A stretch of DNA of 57,418 bases from an uncultured Verrucomicrobiota bacterium (GCA_949295265.1 CASFKR010000006.1:1-57418); one strand, 5' to 3'. Shown: positions 4,964 to 45,456, counted from the first letter of the stretch. Program-made: numbers and translations. Notes: generated from the sequence alone by a model not told the origin.

Positions 4964-5803
4964 TTATTGATAGACGCGAACGTACTCGATTTCGAAGCGG
5001 GCCGGGAAAATACCCGGGTCAATCCCCTTCTGTCCGCCCCAGGCGCCGCCGATGGCAAGGTTCAGCAGCAGATAATGAGGTTTGCGGAAGGGATACGGAG
5101 AAAACTCGCTCAAATCGCCCGTTTTCGTGTATTCCCCGGCCTTTTTCCCGTCGATAAACAGCCGGAGCGCCGAGGGTTCCCACTCCAGGACGTACGTCAC
5201 AAAACTGTCGAGGGCGGGCGGATGCACGAGCCGACAGCCGGGCGTCATAACATGCCGGACCGGGGCAAGACGCTTTCCCGCTGCCTTGCTCCTCCGTGCG
5301 GAGGGTTTCCCGCCGCCGTCCGGCTTCTGCCCCGGCCCGTGAAGCGTGAAATGGAGCACATCCGGCTCAAACCCAACGTATTCCATGATGTCGATTTCGC
5401 CGCACCGGGGCCAGCCGACCTCGCCGATATCTTCGCCCAGCATCCAGATGGCGGGCCAGACCCCGCGTCCGCCGGGAACGCGCGCCCGGATTTCGAACCG
5501 GCCATACGTCCAGGCATGCTTTCCAAGGGTCGTAATGGCCGCCGAGGTGCACAGCTCCGTTTCGCCGCCATGTTTGTAGGCATCCAAATGCGCCTCGAGG
5601 ATGAGACGTCCGCCCGATACGCGTGCATTTTTGCGGCGTTCCCGGGTGTAGTATTGGAGTTCCTGATTGCGGCAATACCCTTCCTCATAGGTCCAATTCG
5701 CCGGATCGGGCAACCCGGGCTTGTCGAATTCATCATGCCAGACGAGTTTCAGCCGCTTTCCGGTTGAGGAAAGCACGGTTTCGGGCGCGGGTGTCTTTTT
5801 CAT
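4964..5803 (-). CDS. Glycoside hydrolase family 16 (beta-glucanase / laminarinase-like)
   Basis: WPAIWMLG followed by the GEIDIMEYVG catalytic E-x-D-x-x-E signature. Start placed at the ATG at 5803, which is preceded by AGGAGA. The track ORF extends to 5869. No obvious signal peptide. Confidence 0.85.
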   Translation of the reverse strand: MKKTPAPETVLSSTGKRLKLVWHDEFDKPGLPDPANWTYEEGYCRNQELQYYTRERRKNARVSGGRLILEAHLDAYKHGGETELCTSAAITTLGKHAWTYGRFEIRARVPGGRGVWPAIWMLGEDIGEVGWPRCGEIDIMEYVGFEPDVLHFTLHGPGQKPDGGGKPSARRSKAAGKRLAPVRHVMTPGCRLVHPPALDSFVTYVLEWEPSALRLFIDGKKAGEYTKTGDLSEFSPYPFRKPHYLLLNLAIGGAWGGQKGIDPGIFPARFEIEYVRVYQ

Positions 5804-6080
5804 GCGGTTATCTCCTAAGAAACAGAGAGCGGCGATGCCTCCTGAAAATGGGCTCTCCGTTTTCCCCATTGTAGCGAGAGCGGCCGCACCCCTGCAACCC
5901 CATCCGTGTACAGGTTTATCCCGGTTTTTTTCGGGATAATTTATCCAGATTTCTTGAAAGAAGTCTCCTGTAGCCTCTTTTTAAGACTAGATACTCGTGA
6001 ATAGCCCGCCAATACTTTTTCACCCGAAAGTTCGGTAAAATAACTTTGCCGTCGGTCGCTCCAATGGTTGCGGTGACTTC

Positions 6081-6257
6081 GTTCAGGCGGCTCTGCCGCC
6101 GAGAAAAAGTTCTTATTTGACACCTTGGTCGGAACGTTAGTGGAGACTTCAAAACGGGGCTTCGCCCCTCCGTGTGGCTCAATTTTCTTAACTCATCGCG
6201 AGGCTGAGTTTCACAACCTTCCTCCGTGTGGCTCACAAATCCGGGATAAGCCTGGTG
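6081..6257 (+). repeat. 177-nt composite repeat; inverted copy at 45250-45420
   Basis: Aligns end to end with the reverse complement of 45250-45420, mostly identical by eye. Contains TTGACACCTTGGTCGGAACG, the hairpin GGGGCTTCGCCCC, two copies of CTCCGTGTGGCTCA, and CCGGGATAAGCCTGG. Confidence 0.9.
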
Positions 6258-6270
6258 TACAGCGGGCACA

Positions 6271-6407
6271 GCAAAGCCGCGCGAGGGATTTGTTTCCCGC
6301 AGAGACACAGAGGGAGGGAGAGGGAAAAAGGGAGCGAAGCCGCCGCCACGACCCCGGAGGGGGCGAACTGTCATGCAAAGGATGAGCGAAACGAGTCCTG
6401 AAGCAGG
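6271..6407 (+). repeat. Repeat modules TGTTTCCCGCAGAGACACAGAG (6290-6312) and GCGAAGCCGCCGCCACGACCC...GAACTGTCATGCAAAGGATGAGCG...CTGAAGCAGG (6331-6407)
   Basis: The first module recurs at 16442, 22016 and 50637. The second recurs at 41009-41098 and partly at 16464-16507. Confidence 0.85.
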
Positions 6408-6483
6408 AACAGATACAGAAGCCCTTCGGCCTGTTACAAAGGGAGGTCAGCGCAGAGAACATCAGGACAATCAGGTACAGATT

Positions 6484-6945
6484 TTACTCCTGGAATTTCC
6501 GATTCCAAAAACGGAATGAACAGGCAGTATACCAGTCTACGGAAAATTCACCCGTTGTCCGGTTTAAAATAGCAGCCTCCATCGTTATGTAACAGAAGAC
6601 GCCTTGCGGAGCGGACCATCCGTTTTCAAAGTTTTCAAAGGGGAATGAGATAAGTTTTGTTTCTCCGGGTTCCAGACAGTTGGTCGTCATAACGTAGGAA
6701 AGCCGTTGTAACAGAGCCCCTCTCTCATCGAAAGCATCCGTTCTTGCGGCCACGTCCAGACGGGCTGGAACAGCCAATGAATTGGTCAGAAAGACTGTCC
6801 AAAGAAATGCTTCTCCTTTTTCAATCGAATAGGGAGCGGTAAACGAACATCCGTTTTCAAGGGGCGCATGAACCAAAAGATCCGGCTGCCCAAGACAAAA
6901 TCCAACCGTGAAGAAAATGCAAGCAAGAACAGTCAGCCGTTTCAT
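6484..6945 (-). CDS. Secreted single-domain beta-barrel protein, type B, copy 2 (Transglut_C-like); paralog of 9293-9760
   Basis: Start at the internal Met gives MKRLTVLACIFFTVGFCLGQ, a Sec-type signal peptide. Core motif FTAPYSIEKGEAFLWTVFLTNSLAVPARLDV. Aligns along its length with the 155-aa ORF 9293-9760. AT-rich codon usage unlike the flanks. Confidence 0.8.
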   Translation of the reverse strand: MKRLTVLACIFFTVGFCLGQPDLLVHAPLENGCSFTAPYSIEKGEAFLWTVFLTNSLAVPARLDVAARTDAFDERGALLQRLSYVMTTNCLEPGETKLISFPFENFENGWSAPQGVFCYITMEAAILNRTTGEFSVDWYTACSFRFWNRKFQE

Positions 6946-7057
6946 AACAAATCTGAATTTCAGAAATCCATCAACCAAGGATGCGGCCACTTTCTGGTGC
7001 AGGGGCGTTGTTTTCTCAAACAATTTCATTTCCGCAGCCTGGCCGCCACATATTCTT

Positions 7058-7566
7058 TTATAGAGCCCCTGAATCGCCGTCTTCTGTCAGTGCGGGAAAA
7101 TCGTCCTGTGTAATCGGATTTCCCCGGAGATCCGGCACACGCCATTCGGGAAGAGGAACCACAGCCTGAAAGATTCTCAGGGAGCTGGCGCCTGTCGTCA
7201 GGTTGGTTGTAAAAATAAAAAAATCAATGCAGTCCGGAACCATATTGGACGGCATCCAGTCTTTGAGGGGAAAGACTATTTTTTAAAATCCCCGGCAGCA
7301 AGAAAATTCGTCGTGCATACTATGCCTGCTGAAAAAGAATATGTTGCCCAGGCATTTTTGCCGAGAACGTTGGCATAAATCATTCGTTGGACAGGAAAAT
7401 CCTCTTTGTTGGTTATCGTAAGAGCCCATTCATATGGAACTCCTTTTTCCATCACGCGTGGAGCAAAAAGCCGCACTGCTTCATCGACAACAACCTCACA
7501 GATTTGGACGCCGGATGAAGCAATTGAAAAGAACATCAACGCGATGAATGCGAGCCGTGTTTTCAT
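7058..7566 (-). pseudogene. Secreted beta-barrel protein, type A, copy 2, interrupted by a frameshift at a homopolymer; paralog of 9846-10340
   Basis: ORF 7276-7566 (MKTRLAFIALMFFSIASSG...EWALTITNKEDFPVQ) and ORF 7058-7255 (MPSNMVPDCIDFFIFTTNLTTG...ITQDDFP) match the N- and C-terminal halves of the 9846-10340 protein. Adding one base to the A6 run (plus-strand T6, 7279-7284) restores a single frame reading ..GDFKKIVFPLKDWMPSN.. Confidence 0.8.
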
Positions 7567-7850
7567 CTGTAAAACTCCTTTAAGGATATCCATTTGTTGG
7601 TGTCAGCAAGCTTTGTGTAAATGGAATCTCCGAGTGAATTAAGAACGGTTTTCACATGATTCGTAATCGCTCCATTGACGCTGAAATAATGAACTGGAGC
7701 GGAAACCGCGGCATGGAAATCATTCACATCATACACACAGTTTCCATTCGGTTTCACAGCCGAACGCGGAGCCGGTCCACATTGATATTTCCCGCCACTG
7801 AAAATTTGCGGTGTCCCAATTCGGGGCGCGGCGAACGACCAGCGCATTCG
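7563..7850 (-). pseudogene. Animal-type transglutaminase core, C-terminal remnant (fragment 3)
   Basis: RIGTPQIFSGGKYQCGPAPRSAVKPNG..YDVNDFHAAVSAPVHYFSVNG parallels 10337-10903. It lacks the Cys and His motifs, and the Asp position reads R-I-G-T-P-Q. It begins right after the stop of the upstream gene. Its stop overlaps the next start as ATGA. Confidence 0.75.
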
Positions 7851-7862
7851 TCCCGGTTAATT

Positions 7863-8876
7863 TTACAGTCCCGGACTCAACTGTGATTCCGTTGGAATAG
7901 AGTTTGTGCATTCGGCTACATCAATATCAAGCAGATTCCAATTGAAATTCGTATCTGTACGGTTGATAATATTGATGCTGAACTCCACACAATCGAATGG
8001 AGGCGGATTCGTAGGGTACCAGTTTTCAGCCACAGAAAACGGAAGCAGCCGGGACTCCCCGGGGGCGATATTGTTCGTTGAAATCACTGCGGCCAGACGT
8101 TTGTATGGTCGCCCATAATCATACTTGGCATCAACGCTGGAGCAGACATCCAGCCGAAGCGTTTTGGCTGTTGTATTCGTAATAAAGACACTCCACTCGA
8201 TTGGTTGAAAAATACTTACCCTTGAAGGAACTGTAAAATAACACCCATCGGCAAGCGGCATCACTTTCATTGGCGCATTTGTCTTATCCTTTAAAGAAAG
8301 CGTGTTATTGGAAGCCGCCCGAAGCATTTTTTGAATCAGCGCCGGATTGTCGCGAATCCGGAAGTTGTTCGTGGACGTAATGTAATAACCATCTATCTTT
8401 CCTGATATATGTTTTTTCGTTTCCAGATTAGTGATATCAGCAGTAAATCGGATATCTCTACCTTTCGGAACCCAATGATCCACTTTATAGGACATAACCC
8501 CGGATTCACCGGGAGCCAACAGATTCGTTGTTATATTGTTGTAAAGATTAGCGATTTCCACCCCATTATAGTACCTCCATCGGGCTGTGGTCCTGACAAT
8601 CAGATGAACGGGGAAAGAGAATTGATTGGTTATACCGATAGACCACTCTATCGGCTTCCCTTTGTAAACGATACCGGGTGAGGTGATTGAAAAACCATTG
8701 CCAAGATGCTGCTCACGTGGTCCCGATGACCATTTTACCATCTTAATCCGCCCCTTAACTGGGCTTCGGTTCGTTATACAATTAACAATTTCACTATTCG
8801 AAATTTCATGCGCTTCCTGTCCTTGACAGAAAGTCGCAAATATAAACCAGACAAATGCTAAAATAAAACTTTTCAT
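7863..8876 (-). CDS. Secreted two-domain beta-barrel protein (two tandem Transglut_C-like domains)
   Basis: Signal peptide MKSFILAFVWFIFATFCQGQ. Domain 1 has KGKPIEWSIGITNQFSFPVHLIV. Domain 2 has FQPIEWSVFITNTTAKTLRLDV ... IAPGESRLLPFSVAENWY. Confidence 0.8.
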   Translation of the reverse strand: MKSFILAFVWFIFATFCQGQEAHEISNSEIVNCITNRSPVKGRIKMVKWSSGPREQHLGNGFSITSPGIVYKGKPIEWSIGITNQFSFPVHLIVRTTARWRYYNGVEIANLYNNITTNLLAPGESGVMSYKVDHWVPKGRDIRFTADITNLETKKHISGKIDGYYITSTNNFRIRDNPALIQKMLRAASNNTLSLKDKTNAPMKVMPLADGCYFTVPSRVSIFQPIEWSVFITNTTAKTLRLDVCSSVDAKYDYGRPYKRLAAVISTNNIAPGESRLLPFSVAENWYPTNPPPFDCVEFSINIINRTDTNFNWNLLDIDVAECTNSIPTESQLSPGL

Positions 8877-9133
8877 GGATTAACTGAAGTTTCTTTATTT
8901 TTGTATTCGTCCGTTAAATCTACACCATAAATTGTCCGGGGATACTGAGTCATAATCAAAATTCCAGCCTCATGTTCACCGTTTGTTGATACACATTCAA
9001 CTCCGTTTTCATACTTGTAAACATTGCAGTTAACACCGTTTTTTACGAAACTCCGGGGAGCCGGTCCGCACTGAAACTTACCATCACTGAGTTCCTGTGG
9101 AGTTCCATCATGTGGCACATGGAAAATCTTAAT
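8873..9133 (-). pseudogene. Animal-type transglutaminase core remnant (fragment 2), 5-prime end replaced by a repeat module
   Basis: ..KIFHVPHDGTPQELSDGKFQCGPAPRSFVKNG.. The FHV and DGTPQ motifs are joined by an apparent internal deletion. The upstream reading frame runs into repeat module 9128-9191 and hits an in-frame stop at 9164-9166. The 3-prime end overlaps the next ATG as ATGA. Confidence 0.7.
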
Positions 9134-9191
9134 TTGACACCTTGGTTGGAACGTAGTGGAGATTCAAAACGGGGCTTCGCCATATGGCTCA
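9128..9191 (+). repeat. Hairpin repeat module (copy inside the island)
   Basis: CTTAATTTGACACCTTGGTTGGAACGTAGTGGAGATTCAAAACGGGGCTTCGCCATATGGCTCAA matches 6111-6181 and 331-396. Confidence 0.85.
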
Positions 9192-9292
9192 ATCATCCGG
9201 AAACTTCAATTGAAATTTTCCGGTCAAATTGAGGAAGACGCCCCGTTATTTGATTTTGTACGGAGGGTTCCCAAACCTTACCGTTACATGCC

Positions 9293-9760
9293 TTATCGAT
9301 TGCGGTCCTTGTCCGAAAACGGATTTGGGCGATAGAACGTACTGGCGGAATGCCAGTTAACAGAAAATTCTTCTGTCGTCCGGTTTAAGACGGCTGCTTC
9401 CATAGTCATATACGACATGCGACCGGACGGCGCCGTCCATCCCGGTTCTACTGAAATGAGAAGGCGTTTGAACGCTCCCGGAGCCAGATAATTTGTGGTC
9501 AACCCATACGAAAGCCGAAGAAGCCGTTCTCCGGAATCACCAATCAAATCCGTCCTTGTCAGGACATCCAGCCGGACAGGAATACTGGCTGAATTCGTTA
9601 GAGATACCGACCATTGAACAGGCATTCCTTTACGGACATCATAAGGAGCCGTCAAATAACTGCCGTTCCCAATTGTTGCGTGAACAACAACGTCCGAACG
9701 GCCAAAGCAGAAGACCGCACATGCAATCCAACACAAGGAAATAGCAAATAGAGTTTTCAC
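9293..9760 (-). CDS. Secreted single-domain beta-barrel protein, type B, copy 1 (Transglut_C-like)
   Basis: Signal peptide MKTLFAISLCWIACAVFCFG. Core motif LTAPYDVRKGMPVQWSVSLTNSASIPVRLDV. Paralog of 6484-6945. Confidence 0.8.
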   Translation of the reverse strand: MKTLFAISLCWIACAVFCFGRSDVVVHATIGNGSYLTAPYDVRKGMPVQWSVSLTNSASIPVRLDVLTRTDLIGDSGERLLRLSYGLTTNYLAPGAFKRLLISVEPGWTAPSGRMSYMTMEAAVLNRTTEEFSVNWHSASTFYRPNPFSDKDRNR

Positions 9761-9845
9761 AGCGGCAGGTTTTCGTATGGGGAACGCATGATTCTATCCG
9801 ACAGGAAGATGACATCCAAAACGAAACTTCACATAAAAAGGTCAA

Positions 9846-10340
9846 TCATTCTGGCGGAAAATCGTCTCGTGTGATGGGAGTTCCACGGGTATCCGGTATC
9901 GGCAGCCCTGGAATCGCCGGAAACGAAGTGCCGACGCAGAAAAGATTTCCAGCATGCGACCCTGTTGTCAGATTGGTTGTAAAGATCAAAAATTCAATGG
10001 TATCCGGGGCCCGGTTCGAGGGCATCCAATTCTCATCGAGAGGATTTCGTATCTGTAAACTTTTTCCTGGATCAAGATGATTCGTCACGCAAATATGGCC
10101 AACGGAAAAAGAATACTCACCCCAATAGTGTTTTCCGTTGGCAAAGGCCATAATCCCGATTTGAACAGGAAAATCATTTTTGTTTGTTACAGAAACAGAC
10201 CATTCGCAGGGGGTTCCAGCGGTCATGAAAAAAGGCGTAAACAGCCGGACTTCATCTCCGACCGTAATTTCACAGATTTTTCCCCCATGGCAAAAACCTG
10301 TAAACAGGAGCAACCAGACGATTGGGAAATGCTTTTTCAT
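9846..10340 (-). CDS. Secreted beta-barrel protein, type A, copy 1 (Transglut_C-like)
   Basis: Start placed at MKKHFPIVWLLLFTGFCHGG (ATG at 10338-10340), which overlaps the stop of the upstream transglutaminase fragment as ATGA. Core motif TAGTPCEWSVSVTNKNDFPVQIGI. Confidence 0.8.
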   Translation of the reverse strand: MKKHFPIVWLLLFTGFCHGGKICEITVGDEVRLFTPFFMTAGTPCEWSVSVTNKNDFPVQIGIMAFANGKHYWGEYSFSVGHICVTNHLDPGKSLQIRNPLDENWMPSNRAPDTIEFLIFTTNLTTGSHAGNLFCVGTSFPAIPGLPIPDTRGTPITRDDFPPE

Positions 10341-10903
10341 TGATTGTTCTCCAACAAAGAAAACCATTCATTTGTTCCTGGTTTCTTTGTAATGACATCC
10401 GTACCAAGACACCCGTATACGGTTTCTATCAAATTTGTATTTCCACCATTCACGCTAAAATACTGAACAGGTGCAGAAACTGCAGAAGAAATGAAATCCA
10501 CATCATACTGACCTCCTGCATTGTTTTTCACGAACGAATACGGAGCGGGTCCACATTGATATTTTCCTCCACTAAGAATCTGTGGTGTTCCATCGATAAT
10601 TTGCCAACCATCCCCATTTGTGACATCTGGCCGTGCCATCCAGATTTCCGTCCAGACATGAAAATTCCAGATTTTGTCATACGAATCACCTGTTAAAATC
10701 TGATTATTCGGGAACACGTATAAATCGATTTTTTTGTTTCCATTTTTGTCAACACCGGAATCAAAGCAAGTCACTGGACGGGCGGGCAGTCCGCAAGCTC
10801 TTGCCAGACTTGTTATCATTCCAGCAAAAACCCAGCACTGTCCATATTTGACGGGACTCTCTAAAGAAAGATACTGCTCAAAAATTTCGGCGCTACTTCC
10901 AAT
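10337..10903 (-). pseudogene. Animal-type transglutaminase catalytic core, 5-prime truncated; Cys-His-Asp motifs present but no usable start codon
   Basis: The open frame begins right after a TAA at 10904-10906 and reads IGSSAEIFEQYLSLESPVKYGQCWVFAGMITSLARACGLPARPVT...KIWNFHVWTEIWMARPD...GWQIIDGTPQILSGGKYQCGPAP. There is no ATG, GTG or TTG upstream of the Cys codon (10835-10837). The first Met (10819) lies after the catalytic Cys. The N-terminal sandwich domain and about half of the core are missing. Confidence 0.8.
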
Positions 10904-10914
10904 TTAGTGAAAAA

Positions 10915-10953
10915 GGCCTTGTTTGCCGAAGGAATCGCACCTGATTCGATGCG
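10915..10953 (+). repeat. Repeat module GGCCTTGnTTGCCGAAGnAAnCGCACCTGATTCGATGCG (second copy at 57324-57361)
   Basis: Near-identical 39-nt strings at both sites. This copy abuts the right edge of the AT-rich island. Confidence 0.8.
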
Positions 10954-11003: not shown

Positions 11004-11927
11004 CTAGCGCGACACGGAGGCGGATGAAGGGTCCGGGGAGAAGGAGCGGAGGCGCGCTTCCACGGCGGCAATGACAGATTCCGGAGTACTGGCGCCCGCA
11101 GTGACACCGACACAGGAACAGCCGCGAAAATCATCGGGGCGGAGCTCATCGGCCGTTTCCACGACAATCGTCGGACGCTTCGCGCGGGCAAGCGATGCCA
11201 GGCGCATGGTGTTGGCGCTGGTGGCAGAACCGACGACGACAATGCAGTCGCTTTCGTCCGCCAACTCGCTCAAGGCGCGCTGCCGGGCTTGCGTGGCACC
11301 GCAGATGGTGTTGATGATGTGCGCCGCAGGCCAGCGGCGGCGGATGGCTTCCGCCACCGTGCCGAAAAGCGCTTCGTTTTGCGTCGTCTGCGAAACAAAG
11401 GTGACCATGGGCACGCCGTCGCCGTCCCTCGGCAAGGCGTCCTCAGAGAGGGCGTCGACCGCCTCCGGGGAATCGACAACGCACGCTCCCGGATTGGTGC
11501 AGCACCCCAAAATACCCACCACCTCGGCATGCTGGGGATCGCCCAGCACGAGAACATAGCGCCCGGCGGCAGCGGCTTCGGAGACGATTTTGTGGATGCG
11601 CGCCACATTGGGGCACGTCGCATCAATCAGGCGGAGTCCCAGCCGCTCCAGCCAGCGATACCGGGATGCCGGGATGCCGTGGGCGCGAATCAGGAGTGCG
11701 GCACCTTCGGGCAGCCCTGCGGGGTCATTGCAGACGCGCACGCCGACCGTTGCCAGGCGGGCAATCTCCTGATGGTTGTGAATCAGCGGGCCGTCCGTCC
11801 AGATACCCGGCTCCGGAGTTCCCGCCGAAGCCGCTTCTACAGCCGTCTGTGCGGCTTTTTCCGCCATCTCCACGGCGCGGCGGACGCCCCAGCAAAAGCC
11901 GGCGTTTTTGGCGCGGATGACCTTCAT
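11004..11927 (-). CDS. ispH: 4-hydroxy-3-methylbut-2-enyl diphosphate reductase
   Basis: MKVIRAKNAGFCWGVRRAV, ATCPNV and NTICGAT, the three conserved Cys contexts of IspH/LytB. Confidence 0.93.
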   Translation of the reverse strand: MKVIRAKNAGFCWGVRRAVEMAEKAAQTAVEAASAGTPEPGIWTDGPLIHNHQEIARLATVGVRVCNDPAGLPEGAALLIRAHGIPASRYRWLERLGLRLIDATCPNVARIHKIVSEAAAAGRYVLVLGDPQHAEVVGILGCCTNPGACVVDSPEAVDALSEDALPRDGDGVPMVTFVSQTTQNEALFGTVAEAIRRRWPAAHIINTICGATQARQRALSELADESDCIVVVGSATSANTMRLASLARAKRPTIVVETADELRPDDFRGCSCVGVTAGASTPESVIAAVEARLRSFSPDPSSASVSR

Positions 11928-21902: not shown

Positions 21903-22015
21903 CCGGGTCCCCTGTTCGTTCAGACAGCGGAATTCCCCGGCTGTCCCGGATTCTTGAAACGCACGGACGAGAAGGTGAGGAAAGCCGGAGGAAGCGAAGA
22001 AAAGCCGCACGAGGG

Positions 22016-22358
22016 TTTTGTTTCCCGCAGAGACACAGAGGCAAAGAGTTACTTTGAAAAGTTACACACAGAGGCAAAGCCGCGAGAGGGATTAGAAAAT
22101 TTAGCCACACGGAGGGGCGAAGCCCCCTTCTGGAGCCTCCACTTCGTTCCGACCAAGGTATCAAATAAGGACATTTCTCGGCGGCAAGCCGCCTGATACT
22201 AAGCCGTGCAATCGAGCCGAAAACAGGACGAACACGACGCACAGGACGAACACGACAGACAGGACGGCTCGCTTTTGCGCACAAGGAGACCAGCGAAGCA
22301 TTCCCAGGAGCCTCAGTAGCCTCCCCCAGCGACTCCAGATAGGAGCGAAGCCAGCGCA
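22016..22358. repeat. Mosaic intergenic repeat region R7
   Basis: TTTTGTTTCCCGCAGAGACACAGAGG; inverted hairpin module at 22101-22196; inverted GTnCGTCnT array with GCGCAAAAGCGAGCC flank at 22220-22282; CCCAGnAGC-type array at 22301-22343; GCCAGCGCA at 22350-22358. Confidence 0.85.
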
Positions 22359-40802: not shown

Positions 40803-41290
40803 GAGCCACACGGAGGGGCAAAGTCACACGGAGGCAAAGCCAGCGCAGAATGATGACAACGAAGGCGATGCCAGCGCAACGAGTCAAAACAGGACGAACA
40901 CGACGAACAGGACGAACACGACGAACAGGACGAACAGGACAGCTCGCTTTTGCGCACAACGAGGCTATCGGAGACAGCGCTGCCGAGCGAAGCCGTCAAT
41001 AGTACCAGGGGCGAAGCCGCCGGAAGGAACCGCCGCCACGACCCTGAAGGAGTCGAACTGTCATGCGAAGGATGAGCGCGAGCGAATTCTGAAACAGGGT
41101 TGGTATTAGAAGCGCGCCCCGGACTGTCACAGACGGAGGTTCTTCATCGGCCCCGGAGCGCGCAGGTTGTCTGCGGCGAAGCGGCGGAGACGAAGCCGAT
41201 GATTCCAGCGGCTTCGCCTCCGATCTTCCCGATACTTCCGAGGATTCCGATTTTGCCCTGTCCTGTTCGTCGTGTTCGTCCTGCTTGCGC
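40803..41290. repeat. Mosaic intergenic repeat region R8
   Basis: GAGCCACACGGAGGGGCAAAG; two GCCAGCGCA; inverted GTnCGTCnT array with GCGCAAAAGCGAGC flank at 40871-40957; GCGAAGCCGCCGGAAGG...CTGAAACAGG at 41009-41098; CCGATGATTCC module at 41192-41257; forward short array at 41258-41290. Confidence 0.85.
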
Positions 41291-45249: not shown

Positions 45250-45420
45250 CACCAGGCTTATCCCGGATTTTTGAGCCACACGGAGGAAGGTTGTGAAACT
45301 CAGCCTCGCGATGAGTTAAGATAATTGAGCCACACGGAGTAGCCCCCTTCTAAAGTCTCCACTAACGTTCCGACCAAGGAGTCAAATAAGGACTTTTTCA
45401 CGGCGGCACAGCCGCCTGGA
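45250..45420 (-). repeat. Inverted copy of the 177-nt composite repeat (6081-6257)
   Basis: The reverse complement aligns end to end with 6081-6257. Confidence 0.9.
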
Positions 45421-45456
45421 GCGGAGCCAGCGCAGTGTTGTGGTCAGGTGTGGCGG

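Follow-up and report, generated by a model that had tools for sequence, protein, structure and literature searches.

A 57,418-nucleotide stretch of DNA from an uncultured Verrucomicrobiota bacterium (GCA_949295265.1 CASFKR010000006.1:1-57418; this whole stretch is referred to as the window) carries an array of five open reading frames (ORFs) for small, predicted exported proteins, and profile comparisons and structure models support their homology to β-barrel 1 of the transglutaminases (TGases) of animals. In related bacteria the family appears to be a split animal-type TGase, in which the catalytic part and the barrels are encoded as separate exported polypeptides. Our reading, to which we give a probability of about one half, is that the barrel proteins would be auto-inhibitory subunits that dock in trans on the TGase core, and that those of the window would be the orphaned relic of such a system.

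The barrel proteins

The five barrel ORFs are listed below; core1 and core3 are TGase core remnants of the same array, and the plug Tyr is the putative counterpart, by alignment, of Tyr516 of human TG2. The first-pass annotation had also counted five ORFs, one with two domains and one frameshifted, and this was borne out on the minus strand.

A1: 9846-10340, minus strand; signal peptide and A-type barrel-1-like domain, YWG hairpin, tail RGTPITRDDFP; overlaps the stop codon of core1 (ATGA)
B1: 9293-9760, minus strand; GTG start, signal peptide and B-type barrel-1-like domain, DSG, without the plug Tyr
AB2: 7863-8876, minus strand; signal peptide and two barrel-1-like domains (residues roughly 57-176 and 203-337), with the hairpins YNG in domain 1 and YDYG in domain 2
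A3: 7276-7566 and 7058-7270, minus strand; A-type, with a -1 frameshift in the A6 run 7279-7284
B3: 6484-6945, minus strand; signal peptide and B-type barrel, ERG, without the plug Tyr (the start called at 7029 is probably too early)

Based on BLASTP comparisons, the five ORFs are paralogs and not chance matches. A1 and A3 are 45-53% identical (E 1e-26 and 2e-17), B1 and B3 are 51% identical (E 3e-44), and the domains of AB2 are 30-42% identical to A or B (E 1e-9 to 5e-18). A recent tandem triplication is ruled out: the units are only 45-60% identical in protein and are therefore old paralogs.

Sec-like signal peptides are predicted for all five N-termini by a heuristic scan, as the first-pass annotation had claimed for each ORF, and export is predicted with them. 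All have K or R at positions 2-4 and a 12-residue hydrophobic stretch (mean Kyte-Doolittle hydropathy 2.07 to 2.6); relative to the putative cleavage site, position -3 is C or S and position -1 is G (FCHG|G, FCFG|R, FCQG|Q, ASSG|V and FCLG|Q). These features are also kept across about 20 clusters of the family. A lipoprotein reading is ruled out: Cys at -3, F, H, Q or L at -2 and G at -1 do not make a lipobox.

Concerning the sequence pattern proposed in the first pass, it exists in a looser form than the one given: GEA and VPA occur in B3, F replaces G and KTL replaces PV in domain 2 of AB2, and I replaces [VL] in domain 1 of AB2. When 26 family members are aligned, no variation is seen at the N of TN or at the TN of TTN, and hardly any at the W or at the Gly of YxG. 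The A-type barrels share a further element, a conserved C-terminal tail (RG[TN]PIT[RQ]DDFP) that is predicted to be disordered. It is found in A1 (9849-9893) and A3 (7079-7123), as well as in P0019, P0029 and L018:9413-9895, and could be a docking or recognition peptide.

Homology to barrel 1 and predicted fold

The second domain of AB2 had been lined up in the first pass with a segment of barrel 1 of human TGM2. The segment was correct (TG2 residues 489-551), and the proposed homology to the TGase barrel stands through intermediates and fold, but the direct line-up with TGM2 is not significant on its own. Searching the PDB sequences with a profile of the window barrels alone gave no TGase and only non-significant arrestin and fimbrial matches. 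Because this test and the direct comparison with Pfam failed, homology was shown through intermediates. A profile of window-type sequences, built without the members positive for the Pfam model Transglut_C (PF00927; gathering score 26.6 bits), matches barrel 1 of P0017 with 33.7 bits (E 1.3e-12 at Z=1, i.e. per comparison). P0017 itself passes Transglut_C (63 bits, E 3e-17), as does the orthologous 370-residue protein of L006 (54 bits, E 2e-14); the L017 protein scores 27.6 bits, while those of L013 (25.9 bits), P0020 and P0021 (19-20 bits) fall below the threshold. P0017 aligns to barrels 1 and 2 of factor XIII-A (517-673) and TG3 (495-691), and also to protein 4.2. When all 26 family members were combined in one profile, the only significant PDB matches were TG3 486-586 (E 3e-4) and barrel 1 of protein 4.2 (E 6e-3), and Transglut_C is the Pfam match of 13 of the 26 at E<=1. 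Homology of the window ORFs to TGase barrel 1 is thus supported transitively, at the level of sequence profiles, and is backed by the predicted fold.

Looking at each subtype separately, all five subtype profiles match barrel 1 of six two-barrel proteins (9-46 bits), and none of the five matches barrel 2 in any of these six proteins. An assignment of A to barrel 1 and B to barrel 2 is ruled out, as every subtype profile matches barrel 1 only. The first-pass description of separate exported proteins in the domain order of the animal enzymes holds as far as separate genes with their own signal peptides follow the core, but A and B do not correspond to barrel 1 followed by barrel 2.

Structure prediction, which the first pass had proposed as a check, gave immunoglobulin (Ig)-like sandwiches for both proteins modelled. 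The AlphaFold2 (AF2) models of B1 and A1 (predicted local distance difference test, pLDDT, 82-83) have eight strands and superpose best on factor XIII, TG2 and protein 4.2 (TM-score, TMq, 0.56-0.63; root-mean-square deviation 2.8-4 Å); their other Ig-like matches reach TMq 0.35-0.49. Given how common the Ig-like fold is, the match of these models is supportive rather than decisive.

The family was also searched for exhaustively, by profile, among 1.84 billion representative proteins. The WxVxVTN strand is generic, and by that strand alone the search also drew large repeat proteins of the CARDB/DUF11 type. The true barrel family is very rare: about 20 clusters of proteins of 150-205 residues, each with a signal peptide and one domain. 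NCBIfam has no family model for these barrel proteins.

Organisation of the split TGase in relatives

The metagenomic relatives with the intact form are probably Kiritimatiellia and Verrucomicrobia; L006 is a Verrucomicrobia metagenome-assembled genome. In these relatives a secreted-type TGase gene stops at the boundary of core and barrel 1 (...DLT(S/D)EYK; ...TxxYK), and one to four barrel genes with signal peptides come after it, two barrel domains per core being the commonest count. The next gene overlaps or abuts the TGase gene and encodes a signal peptide and one or more barrels in L006/L010, L011, L012/L013, L015, L017 and L018/L019. The most detailed case is L018/L019: its TGase of 1363 residues starts with a signal peptide and a long extension at the N-terminus, continues with Transglut_N and the core, and ends ...DLTNKYKKED. 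Behind it come a 164-residue barrel protein with a signal peptide, a remnant of a second core and, last, barrels of types A, B and D. A signal peptide of the TGase itself is seen in L014 and L018. Intact TGases (Transglut_N and core) are found only in relatives, namely L018, L013 and L006. The Pfam matches of the relatives' TGases are Transglut_N, Transglut_core and a weak TSP3_bac, and no others; the N-terminal extension has TSP3-type repeats, and this sequence likeness suggests that it resembles a matrix or adhesion protein.

The conclusion that the family is a split animal-type TGase rests on these gene ends at the core/barrel boundary, on the barrel genes with signal peptides next to them, and on the ATGA overlaps of the window, where the stop codon of the core overlaps the start of the first barrel in all three units. 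Literature on bacterial animal-type TGases yielded no description of a split core/barrel arrangement, and the form, as read from these genes, appears to be previously undescribed.

The catalytic modules vary within the family. L018, L020 and L004 share an N-terminal part that is 94-98% identical and then continue into different cores and different sets of barrels. L004, from another sample, has a fuller allele of unit 2 of the window array, with the sandwich domain, a 293-residue core (P0005) and AB2; it is frameshifted and cut by an insertion sequence. Comparison of L020:5380-9222 with L018:4291-9222 presents L020 as a hybrid TGase whose N-terminal part is 98% identical to that of L018 and whose core is another one, broken by a 52-nt deletion; the segment of L018 that holds core-a and the 164-residue barrel is absent from L020. 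Within one population, a module has thus been replaced where sandwich and core meet. Orphan units of a truncated core and barrels lie at unrelated sites: in the window, beside murC in L007, and between an RND pump gene and rpmB in L022-L025, where pairs of orphan A and B barrels have identical neighbours in at least four samples. The GC content of the sandwich, core and barrel DNA is 0.45-0.53, as against 0.55-0.70 for N-terminal extensions and flanks (L018, L013, L022, L007 and the window), and within L013 it is 0.70 for the extension and 0.52 for the core. This suggests a foreign low-GC module grafted onto native N-terminal parts.

Two relatives have neighbouring genes that deserve mention. 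In L005 (a Logan contig of SRR33322338) a TGase core (35-883) and a barrel (880-1350) are followed directly, in 1523-2635, by a homolog of protein-arginine deiminases (Pfam PAD, E 9e-19) and by a 233-residue protein with a signal peptide; two Ca-dependent protein-modifying enzymes that are best known from animals thus adjoin in a bacterial contig. In L018:1-3893, two genes of glycoside hydrolase family 71 (GH71) lie directly 5' of the intact TGase operon, one of them fused to an FGE-sulfatase domain, which hints at a polysaccharide- or matrix-related setting for this TGase.

Core remnants of the window

The barrel ORFs of the window belong to three diverged units, which read 5' to 3' on the minus strand as core1, A1 and B1 (unit 1), core2 and AB2 (unit 2), and core3, A3 and B3 (unit 3). 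The cores are as follows.

core1: 10337..10903, minus strand; 5'-truncated animal-type TGase core, in frame after TAA, equivalent to factor XIII-A residues 295-472
core2: 8873..9118, minus strand; 81-codon remnant starting from DGTPQ, its stop overlapping the start of AB2
core3: 7563..7847, minus strand; 94-codon remnant with internal deletions, its stop overlapping the start of A3

Core1 is recognised by Pfam Transglut_core (E 8e-13) and is about 46% identical to factor XIII-A (E 9e-38). The catalytic triad of Cys (codon 10835-10837), His and Asp is present in core1, with the motifs YGQCW, NFHVW and WQIIDGTPQ, and the β-sandwich and the first ~290 residues are missing; its first in-frame ATG (10819) is downstream of the Cys codon. 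Both core2 and core3 are without the Cys and His regions. The stretch RWSFAA..PR..IGTPQ of core3, which is 60% identical to core1, is a relic of QCWVFAG..PARP..DGTPQ. From core2, 15 codons (FDTDFVRSEVSSLVE) are absent at 8990-9040 that are present in L002, L003, L004 and the intact allele P0005, the window lineage having lost them recently by an in-frame deletion. All three cores are remnants, 5'-truncated or internally deleted, and tblastn found neither further TGase sequence nor an intact TGase, N-terminal part or Transglut_N anywhere in the window. The cognate core that the barrels would block in the first-pass proposal is therefore present in the window as three remnants and not as an intact gene.

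The plug tyrosine and the proposed mechanism

In the closed, inactive state of TG2, Tyr516 of barrel 1 bonds the catalytic Cys277 (PMC11048362). Tyr516 is the Y of SYNG in TG2, Tyr525 of TG3 is the Y of the aligned YNG, and both fall in the same column as the YxG of the barrel family, where 17 of the 26 members have Y and two have F. In the window the Tyr is kept in A1 (YWG) and in domain 1 of AB2 (YNG), shifted in domain 2 of AB2 (YDYG) and changed in A3. In the AF2 model of A1, strands 41-50 and 56-65 form a hairpin with this Tyr at its tip. That the residue is kept in A1, in domain 1 of AB2 and in most relatives is one point in favour of a blocking function.

Based on this, we propose that a secreted TGase with a signal peptide, an N-terminal extension, a β-sandwich and a core, and with no barrels of its own, would be co-transcribed and translationally coupled with one to four barrel proteins. 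The exported barrels would dock non-covalently on the core at the place where the fused barrels of the animal enzymes sit, and the A-type or first barrel would put the Tyr of YxG against the catalytic Cys, plugging the active site in trans. A second barrel might have an accessory role. The enzyme would then stay closed until the barrel is released, the barrel acting as a detachable auto-inhibitory or regulatory subunit. The system of the window would be a relic, with cores that have lost their 5' parts and barrel genes orphaned under relaxed, non-uniform selection, and with a presumed present-day loss of function.

Instability of the array across strains

The array of the window differs from that of related strains. 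In at least nine metagenome contigs the order of the units is 2-1-3, as opposed to 1-2-3 in the window, and these contigs contain hybrid core fragments joined inside a conserved GTPQ..QCGPAP stretch, whereas the core fragments of the window are contiguous. The breakpoints between the haplotypes are at 7659/10592 and 9056/7588 of the window (contigs L002, L026 and L029-L035). Both haplotypes could be explained by a unit being excised and re-integrated through homologous recombination. The unit order may also reflect an assembly artefact in short contigs; the 2-1-3 order is shared by at least nine independent contigs, and the internal contiguity of the window cores also speaks against such an error. 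On the ispH side, the strains have a common boundary (..TTCGGCAA), located at about 10904-10923 of the window, 1195-1215 of L002 and 1662-1682 of L003. Past it the window continues into core1 and the other strains into core2 from 'NFDTDF'; two independent deletions sharing one identical end point seem unlikely.

Several barrel ORFs are broken in other strains. A3 is broken in all strains, at sites that differ between them, A1 is frameshifted in its signal-peptide region in three of 12 contigs (G4A7 vs the in-frame G5A5, window 10275-10284), and AB2 is split in L030. Homopolymer lengths switch the frame between strains (L002, L026 and L035), and in A3 an A6 run is out of frame and an A10 run in frame; this variation could be slipped-strand on/off switching, decay or assembly error. 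The ratio of non-synonymous to synonymous substitution rates (dN/dS) is 0.23-0.41 over the long term, and the few recent changes comprise 5-6 non-synonymous and 0-1 synonymous substitutions. Within the assembly collection, 39 blocks are indexed as holding a protein identical to B1. Overall, the window array is unstable, recombining and decaying.

Setting of the island in the window

The 4.5-kb array occupies a low-GC island at ~5870-10920, with a GC content of 0.45 (6484-10903) vs 0.63 in the remaining window. It is flanked by ispH/LytB (11004-11927) on one side and a GH16 gene (4964-5869) on the other. The wider neighbourhood consists of ordinary chromosomal genes (for an SH3 protein, mnmE and a phosphoesterase). 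Coding content of the island is on the minus strand throughout; plus-strand ORFs are short and without support. Scans of the window for Rfam families and tRNAs found no RNA family and no tRNA, terminators are not in excess, and promoter-like signals are weakly in excess. The remaining parts of the island are the following.

Left island junction: 10904..10923, minus strand; about 80-100 nt 3' of the ispH stop codon
Spacer between B1 and core2: 9119..9292, minus strand; partial dispersed-repeat copy (9127-9181) and remains of the His motif of the core (..KIFHV|PHDGTPQ)
Non-coding right end: 5870..6483, no strand assigned; mostly dispersed repeats with copies elsewhere in the window too

The dispersed repeats form an intergenic family of 70-190 nt with 84-93% identity. 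Its copies in the window are at 6069-6257, 45250-45434, 22094-22196, 330-397, 41030-41098 and 21998-22041, and the copy at 9127-9181 is partial. Since this partial copy lies between B1 and core2, the island has been in place long enough for the repeat to enter it.

Comparison with known systems

The closest known counterpart is barrel 1 of the papain-like, Ca-dependent TGases of animals (TG2, TG3, factor XIII-A and protein 4.2; PF00927). The window barrels share with it the Ig-like sandwich (TM 0.56-0.63), the order of motifs (TN strand, YxG hairpin and [ST]TN..P strand), the place directly after the core and, in the A-type barrels other than A3, where it is changed, the putative plug Tyr (TG2 Y516). 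They differ in that the barrels of the window and its relatives are separate genes with their own signal peptides and do not form one polypeptide with the core; in that all window barrels are barrel-1-like and none is a barrel 2, whereas animal enzymes have barrel 1 followed by barrel 2; and in that the window ORFs are too diverged for a direct PF00927 match, the B-type having no Tyr. A second parallel is nicked TG3. In the TG3 zymogen the core and the barrels are cut apart proteolytically and stay associated, and PDB entries of TG3 name a '27 kDa non-catalytic chain'. There too the catalytic part and the barrels are two polypeptides that need to associate non-covalently, and the cut is at the linker of core and barrel 1; however, the split of TG3 is post-translational and activating, whereas here it is genetic, with separate predicted export.

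Loci of Rhs and contact-dependent inhibition (CDI) polymorphic toxins resemble the family in having a constant N-terminal part, a variable C-terminal enzyme module with a small cognate gene downstream, 5'-truncated orphan units, low-GC modules and strain-level shuffling. The C-terminal toxin and immunity modules of Rhs and CDI systems are also low in GC. Unlike those loci, the present ones have no Rhs, filamentous, pre-toxin or secretion-system markers, and their variable modules are paralogs of one fold. The Tox-TGase domains described by Zhang et al. (2012; PMC3482391) are distant TGase-fold toxins without barrels. Bacterial TGase-like proteins (those of the Pfam Transglut_core superfamily, such as Bacillus Tgl and TgpA, and Streptomyces MTG with its pro-peptide) are secreted or envelope cross-linkers held in check by an extra element, as is proposed here; in contrast, the present cores are near the animal enzymes, as the comparison of core1 with factor XIII-A shows, and relatives have Transglut_N. 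Streptomyces MTG is of an unrelated fold.

Weighing of the alternatives

Several observations weigh against the docking and auto-inhibition proposed above. A search with Transglut_C, which the first pass had named as a check, gave no match for any window ORF at E<=1, and only a weak IgD3_Trs65 match was obtained from Pfam. Arrestin and GH2 Ig domains have Foldseek E-values similar to those of the TGase barrels, though with far lower TM scores, and the Ig-like fold is common. The plug Tyr is gone from B1 (DSG) and B3 (ERG) and from their orthologs. Barrel ORFs are open beside broken cores at unrelated loci (the window, L007, L020 and L022-L025), which counts against the proposal because a subunit that is obligate could be expected to degenerate together with its core. 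Also, an intact TGase could be present elsewhere in the genome, and the window barrels would then be no relics.

The main rival reading is that the barrels protect their bearer, a role that the first pass had also entertained. The secreted TGase would then be an inter-bacterial or envelope-damaging effector, the barrels periplasmic, allele-specific inhibitors that protect the producer and its kin, and the units of truncated core and barrel orphan cassettes maintained because they protect or allow cassettes to be switched; stated for the family as a whole, the split-off barrel 1 would be the allele-specific immunity family of a polymorphic Sec-exported TGase effector, whose arrays recombine at GTPQ..QCGPAP to switch or stockpile specificities. 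We hold both versions to be unlikely. The shared N-terminal part of L018, L020 and L004 with its divergent cores and barrel sets is in line with them, as are the 5'-truncated units, which in L018 lie 3' of the main gene and in the window, L007 and L022-L025 occupy unrelated sites, the re-ordering of units within the conserved stretch, the low GC of core and barrel modules beside high-GC extensions and flanks, and barrels that outlast cores. A constant N-terminal part, a variable module and orphans are, however, equally expected from recombination among tandem paralogs, and the 'variable' cores are ordinary paralogs of ~50% identity. Neither the TGases (by Pfam) nor the surroundings of the window array contain secretion-system, Rhs, pre-toxin or processing domains, the TSP3-type repeats of the extension point to a matrix or adhesion protein, the core remnants are messy internal deletions with no clean cassette boundaries, and the orphan barrels A3, A1 and AB2 are undergoing inactivation in the population. 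This last point, together with the truncation of every window core, the break in A3 with the independent frameshifts in A1, A3 and AB2 of other strains, the excess of recent non-synonymous substitutions and the host repeat inserted into the island, leads to another view, that the island is a dead, horizontally acquired TGase array whose barrel ORFs are open through shortness and recent decay and have no present function. We find this view harder to accept than a protective role: the exact B1 protein recurs in 39 blocks of the collection, the orphan A and B pairs of L022-L025 keep the same neighbours in at least four samples, and it covers present function in the window strain only, leaving the role of the family unexplained. 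By analogy with pilins encoded beside sortases and coat proteins beside Bacillus Tgl, the barrels might instead be exported Ig-like substrates that the TGase cross-links into a surface or matrix polymer. Small secreted Ig-like proteins encoded beside a cross-linking enzyme would suit this, and the disordered A-type tail could be a recognition or acceptor peptide; yet the tail has no conspicuous conserved Gln or Lys (Q occurs only in A3), the origin of the domain is specifically barrel 1 of the enzyme itself, with the putative active-site plug Tyr retained, and about two domains per core mirror the architecture of the enzyme and not a polymer subunit. A substrate role is the least probable of these explanations, and we consider it improbable.

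Significance

Concerning the window itself, the result is modest: it holds a decaying relic array without an intact enzyme. The wider interest lies in the family. Animal TGases (factor XIII, TG2 and TG3) are regulated in cis, by barrels at the C-terminus that lie over the active site. A natural system that encodes a core close to theirs without barrels, and exports the barrels as separate proteins, would make auto-inhibition by the barrel genetically separable, with the core alone or with its barrel and with mutants of the plug Tyr. It would also bear on where animal-type TGases come from, a protein-arginine deiminase homolog lying beside the TGase unit in one relative, and it might represent a new type of cassette system of enzyme and inhibitor, orphan arrays included.

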